Source: an uncultured Flavobacterium sp. (GTDB lineage: Bacteria; Bacteroidota; Bacteroidia; Flavobacteriales; Flavobacteriaceae). Taken from it: DNA of 64,000 bases. A model generated the notes under the pieces. The model was not told where the DNA came from and did not search any database. It was given only the letters and a program-made list of their open reading frames with translations. The DNA lies in assembly GCA_964535705.1 (NCBI GenBank), contig CAZHVE010000001.1:56960-120959 (forward strand). Reading direction: 5' to 3'. Both the position numbers and the translations under genes were made by a program. This document shows positions 23,974-29,304 of this stretch, one piece after another; within the stretch, counting starts at the first letter, position 1; each line of letters begins with the position of its first letter.

Positions 23974-24047
23974 GGCCTTGTGGCGCAACTGAATAGCGCA
24001 CTTGATTACGGCTCAAGAGGTTACTGGTTTGAATCCAGTCAAGGTCA
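23974..24047 (+). tRNA. tRNA-Arg(ACG)
   Basis: Acceptor GGCCTTG/CAAGGTC, anticodon arm CTTGA-TTACGGC-TCAAG, T arm ACTGG-TTTGAAT-CCAGT; no encoded CCA. Confidence 0.95.
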
Positions 24048-24067
24048 CAAATAAATACTACTATAAG

Positions 24068-25118: not shown

Positions 25119-26063
25119 ATGTACAATACTGTCCCAGAACAACTAAGAAAATTAGCAATTGAAAATGTTTTTAGTACACCTACCTATAAAAATTGTTGGA
25201 AAATTTGGCAACCAGAAATTATAAGACTCTTAGGAAATCACTATTCTGAAAATGAAATTTTAAATCTAGGTGACAATCTTTCAGATATATTCAAGTCAAC
25301 TGGAGGTGGCGGAAGAGGTCAAGGGGAATTATCAGCAAGCGGAACAGCTTGGGAATCTTTAGTTTGTTGGTATATTAATCTTTGTACAGCAGGAAGCAGA
25401 GTTGTCGCCATAAAAAAAATGAGTATTGTTCCTAAAGCAATACAAGATGCAATAACGGTGAATTATGGTAATTTTGCTTGTAATACCGAATCTGATATAA
25501 CAATTATTGTCTTTCCTGATTTACCCGAGTATAATACTGATGTAAATCAATTAAATATTTTAAATAGTAGCGGAAATCAAATTTTGCCAATTTTAAAAAA
25601 CAAATTTAATCTTGAACTAACAAATCATTTAGCAGAAAGAGATTTCAATCTATTTGAAATCGGAATTATTCAATGCAAAACAAACTGGAATGACAACGCT
25701 CAAATACCAATGTTATGGGATATGATTTATTCTGCTGGCGGTTTTCGTGGCAGAAATATAACAATAGGTAGAAATGGTTATAATATTCAAAATGCACAAA
25801 GTTTTAGTTATTCGTTTGTAACAGTTCCATCAAACGCAAATACTATTTACAAACCTGATGGAGTAGCAGTTAAGCGAGTTACTAATTTATCTGGAGGAAA
25901 CTATTGGGGTAATCCAAGTGTACAAAATGTTGCCAAATCATTAAAAGAAATTTTTACTAATAATTTCAATTCTGGCTCAAGAACTGGATTGAGAACTGAC
26001 ATTCGAACAGCAATTCCTGAATTGACAGCAAACAATCCATTGTCTTATTTTGGTCTTTATTGA
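25119..26063 (+). CDS. Putative type II restriction endonuclease (PD-(D/E)xK-like)
   Basis: Convergent with and overlapping a C5-MTase; candidate catalytic motif WES...ESDI...IIQCK. Confidence 0.6.
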   Translation: MYNTVPEQLRKLAIENVFSTPTYKNCWKIWQPEIIRLLGNHYSENEILNLGDNLSDIFKSTGGGGRGQGELSASGTAWESLVCWYINLCTAGSRVVAIKKMSIVPKAIQDAITVNYGNFACNTESDITIIVFPDLPEYNTDVNQLNILNSSGNQILPILKNKFNLELTNHLAERDFNLFEIGIIQCKTNWNDNAQIPMLWDMIYSAGGFRGRNITIGRNGYNIQNAQSFSYSFVTVPSNANTIYKPDGVAVKRVTNLSGGNYWGNPSVQNVAKSLKEIFTNNFNSGSRTGLRTDIRTAIPELTANNPLSYFGLY

Positions 26064-28282
26064 ATATTTTTCAATATTTCCATAGCAACCGCTCTAGCCA
26101 TTAGTGGGGGAACTGCGTTCCCTACTAATGTAAATTGGGGAACTTCAAATTTACGTTTATTTCCACCTGTTGAGCGTTTTCCTTGAAAAACAAAAGAATC
26201 ATCAAATGATTGAAGTCTAGCCATTTCACGAACAGTTAATGCTCTTGGATTTGAATAATGAATATAATCATCCGCTATAGTCATAATTGTAGAACTTTGT
26301 CCTTCGGGTTTTAATACAGTATAACTTCTTTTGTCAGATTCTAAACCTATTTCTTTAAGATTCGACTTTGCAGATTCATAGTTTCCTGATTTCAAAATAA
26401 CATTTAATCTTTTAATTACATCACTATTTTGCTTGCTTGTTTTATGATTTTGTAATGGTGCAACTAAATGAGCTAAGGTATTTTCAAGTTCTTCAAAATT
26501 CCTAACATAAAACGGATTCTTTGCATTTGCAAATCGTCCATTTAAACGTCCTTTTTTTGACCATTCAGAATAACTTAATCCATCATTATCATTTGGCTTT
26601 CCATCAATGTTTCTTTTTTGAATTAATTTTTTCATTTTTTCAGTAGAGCCATTGTATTGAGCTTTTAAATCTATTTTTTCATAATCAAATCTTTCATCAT
26701 CATTTCCGACAAAATCCAAATCATAAATAGCTTCAAAAACATTAACCTTTTCATTGTGTTTTACGGTTGCTGGAACATCATTTATAAGTTTTTGGTCTTT
26801 TCTACAACCAATAAATAAAACCCTTTCACGGTTTTGTGGCACTCCATAATTTGATGCTAATGCAACAAATGGTTGCTCAATATTATATAGTCTTATTTTT
26901 GATAAAATAGTTTCAAATTCTTTCTCTTTATTTGCTTTTGTCACAAATAAATCGAGTCCTTTTACACATTCATCAAAAGAGTAATCAAATATTTCAAGTG
27001 CAGTAATAATTTGTTTTACGTCATCTAAAAAAACTTCATTTGGTTTTAAATTATTAAAAGCGGTATGAATTTTATTTATAATTGTTTCAGACTCTATTGA
27101 AGTTAAAAAAAAATCAAAATCATCAGCAAAAAAATCGTTGTCCACATTTGAAAATGCTTTTTCGTTTATAACTTTTTTTCTAATATATTCAAGTTCTTTA
27201 ACACGTTTTAAAAGATTAAATCCGTGACGAATTGTGCTTATGTTTTTATCTGTTTTACTCGTCTTGTAATCAACAATTTTAGGTGTTAATAATCTGAATT
27301 TATTTTCTAAATTATTAATGTAATTGTTCTTTAAAGCATCAAGTTCTTTATCAGTAGATTTCTCAAATTGCAAACGCAAATTGTAACACTCCAAAATAAA
27401 AGATTGCTCAATTTCAACTTTTTTAAGTTGAGCAACAAAATGAATAAGTTGACTAAATTCTTTTAAATCTACAATCGATCTAATTTCTTGCAAAATCATA
27501 TCTTTAATTTTGCCTTGTTCTTTTGTCAAAATTCCTTTGACATTTTCCATAACAAAATACTTAGGACGTAATTGTCTTATTACTTTTAAATAATGTGCAA
27601 ATAAATCATCTTTTTTATCAAATTTTTTTCTTTTACCAGCCAAACTAAAACTTTGGCAAGGTGGACCGCCACAAACAATATCAATCTCTTTATCTCCTAT
27701 TTTTTTTAAAAAATTATCTAAAAAATCTGGCTCTGTAATGTCTTGACGAAGAAATTCAGCATCTAAACCTAGTTGGTAATTATATCTTGCCAAATGCGTA
27801 AGTTCACAATTTTCATTTATATCACTACCTAATCTAAAATCATAATATTTGTTTCCGTATTCAGCTTGAAGAAAGCCTTCGCTAAATCCACCCGCACCAG
27901 CGAATAAGTCCACAAAAGTAATTTTAGATTTCTTTTCATATTCAGTTGAAGGTTCTGAAACAATATTAATATCAGTGTTTTCTCTTCTACTATTAACCAA
28001 CGAAGCGATTTTTTCTTTAATTTTTTTATCCGTAAAATTAGAATGTAATTCAGTTTCAAAATATTTTTCAACTTCTTGTTTTAAAAAATTTAAAAACTTA
28101 TTTATTGACTTATGAGAATATTCGGAATCCTTTACCAACTGATTGGTATTATCCCAATCTTTCTTCATTATCTTTTCACCAGTTGCAACTTTGATTTGCA
28201 AATCTTTTTGACGCAATACCAAATGAATTGGAAATCTTTTGCTTTTATCTTCTTTATCGAGGTAGAACTTAACATTTATCAT
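26057..28282 (-). CDS. dcm: DNA (cytosine-5)-methyltransferase with N-terminal integrase Arm DNA-binding domain
   Basis: FVDLFAGAGG (I), GGPPCQSFS (IV), ENV (VI), YGVPQNRER (VIII), LTVREMARLQSF (IX), VGNAVPP (X). N-terminus VKFYLDK...PIHLVL...KVATGEKI...WD...IN..L is Arm-DNA-bind_5-like. Confidence 0.9.
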   Translation of the reverse strand: MINVKFYLDKEDKSKRFPIHLVLRQKDLQIKVATGEKIMKKDWDNTNQLVKDSEYSHKSINKFLNFLKQEVEKYFETELHSNFTDKKIKEKIASLVNSRRENTDINIVSEPSTEYEKKSKITFVDLFAGAGGFSEGFLQAEYGNKYYDFRLGSDINENCELTHLARYNYQLGLDAEFLRQDITEPDFLDNFLKKIGDKEIDIVCGGPPCQSFSLAGKRKKFDKKDDLFAHYLKVIRQLRPKYFVMENVKGILTKEQGKIKDMILQEIRSIVDLKEFSQLIHFVAQLKKVEIEQSFILECYNLRLQFEKSTDKELDALKNNYINNLENKFRLLTPKIVDYKTSKTDKNISTIRHGFNLLKRVKELEYIRKKVINEKAFSNVDNDFFADDFDFFLTSIESETIINKIHTAFNNLKPNEVFLDDVKQIITALEIFDYSFDECVKGLDLFVTKANKEKEFETILSKIRLYNIEQPFVALASNYGVPQNRERVLFIGCRKDQKLINDVPATVKHNEKVNVFEAIYDLDFVGNDDERFDYEKIDLKAQYNGSTEKMKKLIQKRNIDGKPNDNDGLSYSEWSKKGRLNGRFANAKNPFYVRNFEELENTLAHLVAPLQNHKTSKQNSDVIKRLNVILKSGNYESAKSNLKEIGLESDKRSYTVLKPEGQSSTIMTIADDYIHYSNPRALTVREMARLQSFDDSFVFQGKRSTGGNKRKFEVPQFTLVGNAVPPLMARAVAMEILKNIQ

Positions 28283-28284
28283 TT

Positions 28285-28339
28285 TACGGACGTTTTTACG
28301 GATACGGACAAATTTACGGACAAATTTTAAATACACAAG
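28285..28339 (-). promoter_or_regulatory. MTase promoter overlaid by four TACGGA direct repeats
   Basis: Repeats at 28285, 28297, 28303, 28315 (last two are a perfect 12-bp tandem TACGGACAAATT). Minus-strand CTTG-N19-TAAATTTG with the -7 element at 28309-28316. Confidence 0.7.
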
Positions 28340-28399: not shown

Positions 28400-28548
28400 G
28401 GGCGGCTTGTAACAGCGCCTACAAAAAATTGGCGGTTCAGTGCTTCGTATGACAGTTTTGTGGTCTAACAAACATTTATTCTTCGTATGAACATTTGTGG
28501 TAAAAATCGCCAACTTCTTGCAGCAGCAACCCGTTACCAGTAATTTTT
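28400..28548 (+). repeat. attC-like site 2
   Basis: GTAAC...GTTAC ends; arms CTACAAAAAATTGGCGGTT / AATCGCCAACTTCTTGCAG form an imperfect hairpin that pairs better on the bottom strand. Confidence 0.7.
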
Positions 28549-28622: not shown

Positions 28623-28871
28623 ATGGGACGTAACACATCAGTTTCTTTAGGAGACTATTTTGAAAATTTTGTTGATAATACTGTTTCTGAAGGCAGATTT
28701 AAAAATGCAAGTGAAGTTATTCGAGCAGGTTTAAGATTATTGGAAGAAGAAGAAAACAAAATAGTTGCTCTTAAGAAAGCAATTAGCGAAGGTGTTGAAA
28801 GTGGATTTGTTGAAAATTTTAATCCTAAAAAACATCTTGAATTACTAAAAGCCAAAAAACGAAATGGCTAG
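28623..28871 (+). CDS. parD: ParD-family antitoxin (RHH)
   Basis: NTSVSLG...GRFKNASEVIRAGLRLLEE motif. Confidence 0.92.
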   Translation: MGRNTSVSLGDYFENFVDNTVSEGRFKNASEVIRAGLRLLEEEENKIVALKKAISEGVESGFVENFNPKKHLELLKAKKRNG

Positions 28872-29163
28872 ATACATTCTTACCAACAAAGCTGTTGAAG
28901 ACTTATCAAAAATTTGGGAATATACATATGAAGTTTGGTCAGAGAATCAAGCTGACAAATATTATTTTGAGTTATTAGTTGATTGTCAAGAATTGGCTGA
29001 AAATCAATCTTTAGGTAAAAATTATAATGAAATAGAAAAAAATATTTTTGGTTTTAAGTCTAGTCAACATCTTATTTTTTATAGAATACTGAATACAGCA
29101 AAAATAGAAATTATTAGAATTTTGCACTCAAGAATGGATTTGAAAAATAGAATTCAAGAATAA
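28864..29163 (+). CDS. parE: RelE/ParE-family toxin
   Basis: LTNKAVEDLSKIWEYT...W...QADKY...IIRILHSRMD. Confidence 0.92.
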   Translation: MARYILTNKAVEDLSKIWEYTYEVWSENQADKYYFELLVDCQELAENQSLGKNYNEIEKNIFGFKSSQHLIFYRILNTAKIEIIRILHSRMDLKNRIQE

Positions 29164-29304
29164 AAAACTACTGGTAATCCCCGTTTGAAGCAATTGCTGC
29201 AATTGCTTAAACCAGTTGTCGTTTTCCGCTGGAAAATCTTATCTTAGCAGGAAATAATGGTTCACGAAGCCGCTACACTGGCTTCAAGCCGCGAAACGTT
29301 AAAC
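29163..29304 (+). repeat. attC-like site 3
   Basis: Begins at the parE stop: CTACTGGTAAT...CGTTTGAAGC ... GCTTCAAGCCGCGAAACGTTAAAC. Confidence 0.65.

Follow-up and report, generated by a model that had tools for sequence, protein, structure and literature searches.

The window considered here, a 64,000-nucleotide stretch of DNA from an uncultured Flavobacterium sp., contains a gene for a C5-cytosine DNA methyltransferase (MTase) with an integrase-type Arm domain at its N-terminus. The gene is read from the minus strand with its ATG beginning at 28282, and it converges with a gene that likely encodes a restriction endonuclease. Just upstream of the ATG lie four copies of a short direct repeat, arranged as a leader pair and a core pair, together with a predicted promoter. 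The relevant features are:

25119..26063, plus strand: convergent partner gene, likely a restriction endonuclease, 314 aa; no repeats upstream
26057..28282, minus strand: C5-cytosine DNA methyltransferase with N-terminal Arm domain, 741 aa; PF00145 match (E 1.8e-52) from residue 121
28013..28282, minus strand: Arm-type DNA-binding domain, MTase residues 1-90, the proposed binder
28285..28291, minus strand: repeat 1, GTCCGTA, downstream member of the leader pair, separated from the ATG by 2 nt
28297..28302, minus strand: repeat 2, TCCGTA, upstream member of the leader pair; of the four copies it varies most
28303..28309, minus strand: repeat 3, GTCCGTA, downstream member of the core pair, spanning the predicted transcription start (~28304)
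28309..28316, minus strand: predicted Bacteroidota -7 element TAAATTTG, nested in the core (upstream) pair
28315..28321, minus strand: repeat 4, GTCCGTA, promoter-distal, upstream member of the core pair, lying before the predicted start site
28336..28338, minus strand: predicted -33 TTG, 19 nt upstream of the -7 element

The first-pass annotation had recognised an integrase-type Arm domain at the MTase N-terminus. This assignment is backed by matches to Pfam family PF17293 (Arm-DNA-bind_5) in relatives and by a profile match to integrase N-termini at 99.5% probability (hhalign), a comparison that is partly circular in that the integrases were chosen by similarity to the MTase Arm domain. In the window MTase itself the PF17293 match is weak (residues 10-76, E 0.015, 16.3 bits versus a cut-off of 22.6), and most of its close relatives exceed the cut-off. 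The N-terminal 95 residues as a query returned 49 proteins, and PF17293 was matched in 35 of 38 scanned relatives: some are fragments, some are other MTase fusions, and some are genuine integrases that also have core-binding domains. The predicted fold consists of three strands followed by a long helix (pLDDT 89.8, 30-sequence alignment), and 17 of the 21 conserved columns fall within residues 1-48, the predicted sheet. Among solved structures in the PDB, no clear match to the model was found by Foldseek, VIA-align (best Z 5.0) or sequence profile. Elsewhere in the protein, a long insertion is present in the catalytic region (window 26060-27925, residues ~270-480) and is common to orthologues without the Arm domain. 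One Arm domain of the clade 2 described below is joined to an unrelated C-terminal sequence (P0139; 222 aa, single small contig) and may be a frameshift or a chimera.

The hexamer TACGGA starts at positions 28285, 28297, 28303 and 28315, which bears out the four copies with spacing of 12, 6 and 12 bp described at first sight. Of 752 occurrences on both strands of the 2.36-Mb genome, this cluster is the sole place with more than two copies in 40 bp. A relaxed four-copy pattern has one occurrence per 4.7 Mb (both strands of the genome), the genome holding 32 pairs and one four-copy block. The repeat unit is better read on the gene strand as GTCCGT, in two pairs with 12 bp within each. The -7 element had been placed at the junction of repeats 3 and 4; its position is largely as described, overlapping the last two bases of repeat 4 and abutting repeat 3. 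In F. johnsoniae the final G of the Bacteroidota -7 consensus occupies position -5 (PMC6847099, in the part available), and a G at -5 puts the predicted start at ~28304, inside repeat 3, with a leader of ~22 nt. This predicted 22-nt leader, beside the ATG, holds two and a half repeat copies.

The presence of the -7 box within a conserved block could mean that the repeats are an extended promoter element or a host-factor site. They could also be N-terminal coding sequence read from GTG 28336, a 759-aa form being called in some databases. This group of readings is highly improbable. The four-copy block is unique in the genome, hence there is no host regulon for a host factor to serve, and GTCCG falls outside the consensus published in the accessible part of PMC6847099. 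Coding from GTG 28336 is ruled out, as 64 of 136 regions have the first repeat in a different frame from the ATG, and in 40 the block contains an in-frame stop. The copies in the leader might instead act as RNA, the Arm head binding them on its own mRNA and blocking translation, and the P4 Vis protein has been proposed to bind mRNA (PMC2951348, from the excerpt available). Such control is very unlikely, however, given that the best-conserved copy precedes the predicted start and that, of the two pairs, it is the leader pair that loci can do without. Further, there is no RNA structure (z 0.10), by which a hairpin in the repeat block is ruled out.

Conservation of the block was examined across two clades of Arm-MTase fusions. 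Clade 1 comprises 79 genome loci from the best 80 of 416 relatives (69-94% identical); by the strict pattern, the pair is present in 78 of the 79 and all four copies in 75. Clade 2 was represented by 80 of 171 metagenome loci, and here the Arm domain shares 25-41 of 90 residues with that of the window (~35%). The pair was found in 76 of the 79 usable loci and four copies in 68. Pooling gave 168 loci, which after removal of 2 that were too short and 21 duplicates left 145 distinct upstream regions, mutually related and thus not independent; under the relaxed pattern 144 of these contain the pair and 136 four copies. Absence of upstream repeats from homologous fusions had been named by the first-pass annotation as the finding that would speak against it, and 144 of the 145 carry the pair. 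A nested -7 box, TAnnTTTG, accompanies the repeats in 137 of the 145 regions (relaxed pattern; the promoter is predicted from the consensus). When aligned on the core pair, GTCCGTA is invariant in 77 clade-1 and 76 clade-2 loci, and in clade 1 conservation drops to background beyond about -37 from the first repeat. The block persists although flanks and partner nucleases differ between fusion loci, and no second repeat pair was found elsewhere in the clade-1 or clade-2 loci. Across 401 genomes of the phylum, the exact 18-nt pattern occurs in three, always at Arm-MTase loci; with a fourth genome that has one mismatch, these are the four in which the fusion is present. One-mismatch genome matches to the 18-nt pattern are about as frequent as those to a reversed control. 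Among the 21 exact viral matches listed, none stands before an integrase or an MTase. Judged by this pattern of sequence conservation, the repeat block is a real, strongly conserved cis element.

A single fusion (L076) has an intact Arm domain and neither repeat pair. Its contig stops 129 nt upstream, and the sequence directly against the ATG is a dispersed repeat. The upstream sequence is also present in five other loci, there in unrelated intergenic positions; its identification as an IS end was considered and dropped, with no plasmid match or transposase in support.

The two pairs are unequally conserved: in seven of the 145 loci the leader pair is missing and the core (promoter) pair is kept, and in one locus it is mainly the leader pair that is kept. 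This inequality would suit an Arm head that binds the repeats but activates, or that works in two modes as C proteins do, one pair activating and full occupancy repressing. The weak -33 TTG of clade 2 (19-nt spacing in only 17 of 76 loci, versus 63 of 77 in clade 1) and the co-directional nuclease gene downstream in most loci point the same way. Nevertheless, activation is improbable. With its two copies on either side of the -7 box and one of them over the predicted start, the invariant pair is placed where a bound protein would likely exclude polymerase, and an activating MTase would delay protection.

A different role for the repeats is suggested by the CCG in each copy, since the enzyme is a C5-MTase: its catalytic or target-recognition part might read them as a methylation-sensitive promoter switch, with the Arm domain as a passenger. 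The partner nucleases belong, however, to the MvaI/BcnI and EcoRII-C families, known members of which cut CCWGG, CCSGG or CCNGG (PMC5766183, in the sections available). With the target inferred from these partner families, only 2 of 136 upstream regions contain CCNGG or CCGG, in both cases outside the core pair. Orthologues without the Arm domain also lack the repeats, and a switch of this type can be given little credence.

Such Arm-less orthologues exist naturally, and five loci were compared (L346-L348, L370 and L371), a set of few loci that are mostly from one clade and phylogenetically non-independent. None of the five contains the repeat pair or an Arm remnant. The co-variation of repeats with the Arm domain, put forward as a check by the first-pass annotation, thus holds for presence (144 of 145 fusions, none of five Arm-less loci); within the fusion family the repeat sequence itself hardly varies. 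The partner is of the MvaI type in L346-L348 (Pfam-checked for L347) and of the window's convergent type in L371. The orthologue of L348 is probably inside an operon. In L347, a 74-aa Cro/C1-type helix-turn-helix (HTH) gene lies directly upstream of the orthologue (1766-1987) and is a candidate alternative controller. L346 and L370 have in common a conserved leader (1930-1995 in each) with a GGTTTGGTCGCCTGTC core between complementary arms, unlike the repeats. This leader is possibly an RNA hairpin regulator that replaces them; an Rfam match was absent in the three loci searched, which included Arm-less leaders. Six more Arm-less proteins (P0381, P0378, P0359, P0370, P0325 and P0376) sit among or beside the fusions on a quick midpoint-rooted tree. 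Among 331 genomes of the class, no Arm-less MTase was found, all 13 matches being fusions.

The candidate binders of the repeats are few. No conserved upstream neighbour of at least 90 aa was found in 159 loci, and in the window no small controller gene lies between the repeats and parD. With the upstream neighbours unconserved and the partner nucleases swapping, the MTase is the only constant candidate. The 314-aa partner in the window has no Pfam or PADLOC match; its Atlas neighbours at 0.80-0.85 are restriction endonuclease families, which is a lead only. This type of partner adjoins the MTase in 26 of 159 loci, and the commonest partner is a ~390-aa MvaI/BcnI-family nuclease. The first downstream gene, surveyed in 135 loci, is co-directional in 103 and convergent in 26, with none called in 6. 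By type, it is of the MvaI/BcnI family in 86, of the window's convergent type in 22 and of the EcoRII-C family in 4; another 17 are other co-directional genes, besides the 6 with none called. The co-directional MvaI/BcnI-type nuclease of those 86 loci would likely share the MTase promoter. In several loci (L016, L042, L049, L066, L075, L012 and L059) extra genes either separate the MTase from the MvaI-type nuclease or stand in the nuclease's place, encoding uncharacterised proteins of 380 and 358 aa, or a protein of 200 aa together with a GmrSD_N protein. Being placed behind the MTase promoter, they indicate an operon that gathers candidate defence genes.

The cassette looks mobile, as it is patchy (present in 11 of 300 other genomes of the genus) and low in GC (0.28-0.32 versus 0.37). 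Viral scans with the window MTase and with P0139 gave no relatives, and plasmid and phage searches gave no close MTase or partner. Upstream in the window, a parD-parE toxin-antitoxin pair (28623-29163) stands between repeat elements at 28410-28545 and 29163-29300, with 15-nt inverted arms at 28534-28548 and 29163-29177 around it. Contig C101 has two copies matching the left element, one on each side of a single gene, and the parD-parE unit looks like a gene-cassette unit. Sequence similar to this unit is found upstream of several homologous fusions. On the other side, a tRNA-Arg(ACG) gene (23974-24048) lies ~1 kb from the left end of the cassette, with a pentapeptide-repeat gene between.

A patchy, AT-rich cassette with varying flanks, whose repeat layout matches integrase 5' ends, might suggest that the repeats are working or relic att arm sites at which an integrase moves the cassette in trans. 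This is extremely unlikely. No second PF17293 gene is present in the 91%-complete genome, no integrase match was obtained with four integrase queries in 159 loci, and there is no second repeat set at the other cassette end. Further, an integrase with the exact MTase repeat was not found in the phylum genomes, the viral matches listed or the set used for the Arm tree, and a relic would not have been kept unaltered at 58% protein identity.

Related integrases are informative about the origin of the arrangement. In a first set of 30, collected with a profile of those closest, a repeat of at least 8 nt at 12-bp spacing lies within 120 nt upstream of the start in 18, compared with 10 of 936 control regions of this genome; other spacings are found in at most 2 of the 30. 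A further set was ordered by resemblance to the MTase Arm domain and has three loci in common with the first; here 19 of 56 carry such a repeat. These repeats are presumed to be arm sites. Two integrases, L248 and L277, have near-copies of the MTase pair upstream, and in L248 a -7 box is nested in the same manner. Upstream of the integrase in L262 (120 nt before its start), a 12-bp unit is expanded to about seven tandem copies. In a tree of 97 Arm domains (96 columns, weak resolution), all 18 MTase rows form one clade with support of 99/93. A 17-row integrase clade has mostly TGTT-type repeats, a 28-row integrase clade mostly has no repeat near the start, and the remaining integrases have TGTCCC, TGTACG, TGTCAG and related cores. 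No integrase sister group of the MTase Arm domain was resolved on this tree. Joint capture of the Arm domain and its repeats from an integrase 5' end, as originally surmised, is plausible: the 12-bp pairs before related integrases favour it, whereas no donor integrase is pinpointed on the tree.

Taken together, the GTCCGT block is probably an operator that is bound by the MTase's own Arm head, which would thereby repress transcription. With Arm heads sitting on the two copies that flank the -7 box 12 bp apart, RNA polymerase would be blocked. The leader pair would be auxiliary, because it is missing in seven loci that keep the core pair. Precedents exist on both sides of the fusion. IntS represses itself via an arm site overlapping the -10 box, the core site being dispensable (PMC2951348, in the portion available), and M.Ecl18kI represses its own promoter by steric exclusion of polymerase (PMC2760811, likewise an excerpt). 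The isolated N-domain of M.Ecl18kI did not bind its operator according to the same excerpt (PMC2760811), which implies that the catalytic part may be needed for the Arm-MTase too. The resulting negative feedback loop would cap the MTase level and, in tandem loci, the nuclease level as well. The early methylation burst proposed by the first-pass annotation is a weak element of its account, because in most loci the nuclease follows the MTase on the same strand. Feedback would cover the nuclease in tandem loci and spare it in convergent ones, leaving the burst conjectural. As to origin, the domain, repeats and promoter may have been captured once from an integrase 5' end. We lean towards a self-repression module of an integrase (Arm domain, paired arm sites and nested promoter) having been captured a single time and kept across Bacteroidota as a plug-in feedback repressor of a restriction-modification MTase.

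Restriction-modification (R-M) systems must time methylation against cutting. If the proposed reading is true, direct repeats serving as the operator of an integrase Arm domain would be a further solution to R-M control and a clear case of a whole mobile-element regulatory module being reused. It would also mean that an arm-binding domain can work as a transcription repressor with no recombinase attached. The 12-bp pairs before many Bacteroidota integrases would be autoregulatory operators, their sequence tracking the Arm clade. The 90-residue head and its 37-bp site offer a compact test system for Arm-DNA recognition in Bacteroidota, and possibly a self-limiting promoter part for Bacteroidota genetics.

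Known solutions to R-M timing include HTH controllers, palindromic operators and methylation switches. In switch promoters of the CfrBI type, the promoter contains the enzyme's own target site. In contrast to C-protein R-M systems, no separate small HTH controller gene accompanies the Arm-MTase, neither among upstream neighbours of at least 90 aa in 159 loci nor between the repeats and parD in the window. In the literature searched, to which subscription papers, REBASE and supplements did not belong, no description of an Arm-MTase direct-repeat operator was found. A paper on F. psychrophilum (PMC11837570) was also considered, and the part of it available established no tie to the Arm-MTase protein.

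Several known systems resemble the Arm-MTase in part. As with UbaLAI, MvaI and BcnI, the commonest partner of the MTase is an MvaI/BcnI-family nuclease (PMC5766183, excerpt), whereas the window's partner is a different, convergent 314-aa protein with no family match. The domain is homologous to the N-terminal domain of the IntCTnDOT subgroup (Pfam Arm-DNA-bind_5; PMC8138268, in the part available), and close to the start codon of related integrases lie repeats spaced 12 bp whose TGTC/TGTA cores are similar. Unlike in that subgroup, the Arm domain here has no recombinase attached, and the methyltransferase is the only gene at which the exact GTCCGT four-copy block turned up. The paired short direct repeats close to the 5' end of an Arm-domain gene also recall the arm-type sites of integrase att regions, but the loci and the 91%-complete genome searched yielded no cognate tyrosine integrase, core site or second arm set nearby. 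In KplE1 IntS and P4 Int, arm-type sites overlap the gene's own promoter, P'1 overlapping the -10 box (PMC2951348, portion available). The Arm-MTase differs from them in having no core-binding or catalytic recombinase domain, att core or excisionase, and in that the cargo of the Arm domain is a methyltransferase, in Bacteroidota.

The closest parallel is with the SsoII, Ecl18kI, EcoRII and MspI enzymes, which are likewise C5-MTases with an extra N-terminal DNA-binding region (PMC2760811, excerpt). In these systems the MTase promoter, which in our case is predicted, is overlain by a site that serves this role alone and is not the methylation target, and the nuclease families are related and of the CC(N)GG type (same excerpt, PMC2760811). 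The differences are in the parts used. The head of the Arm-MTase is a predicted integrase Arm fold and matched no HTH family in Pfam. Its site consists of four direct repeats, theirs is a palindrome (inverted repeat). Its nuclease and MTase genes are tandem or convergent, whereas theirs are divergent with a shared intergenic operator. Self-repression is putative in the Arm-MTase. The wiring is thus best read not as an att site but as one that would work like SsoII-type autoregulation, with neither HTH, palindrome nor divergent genes.
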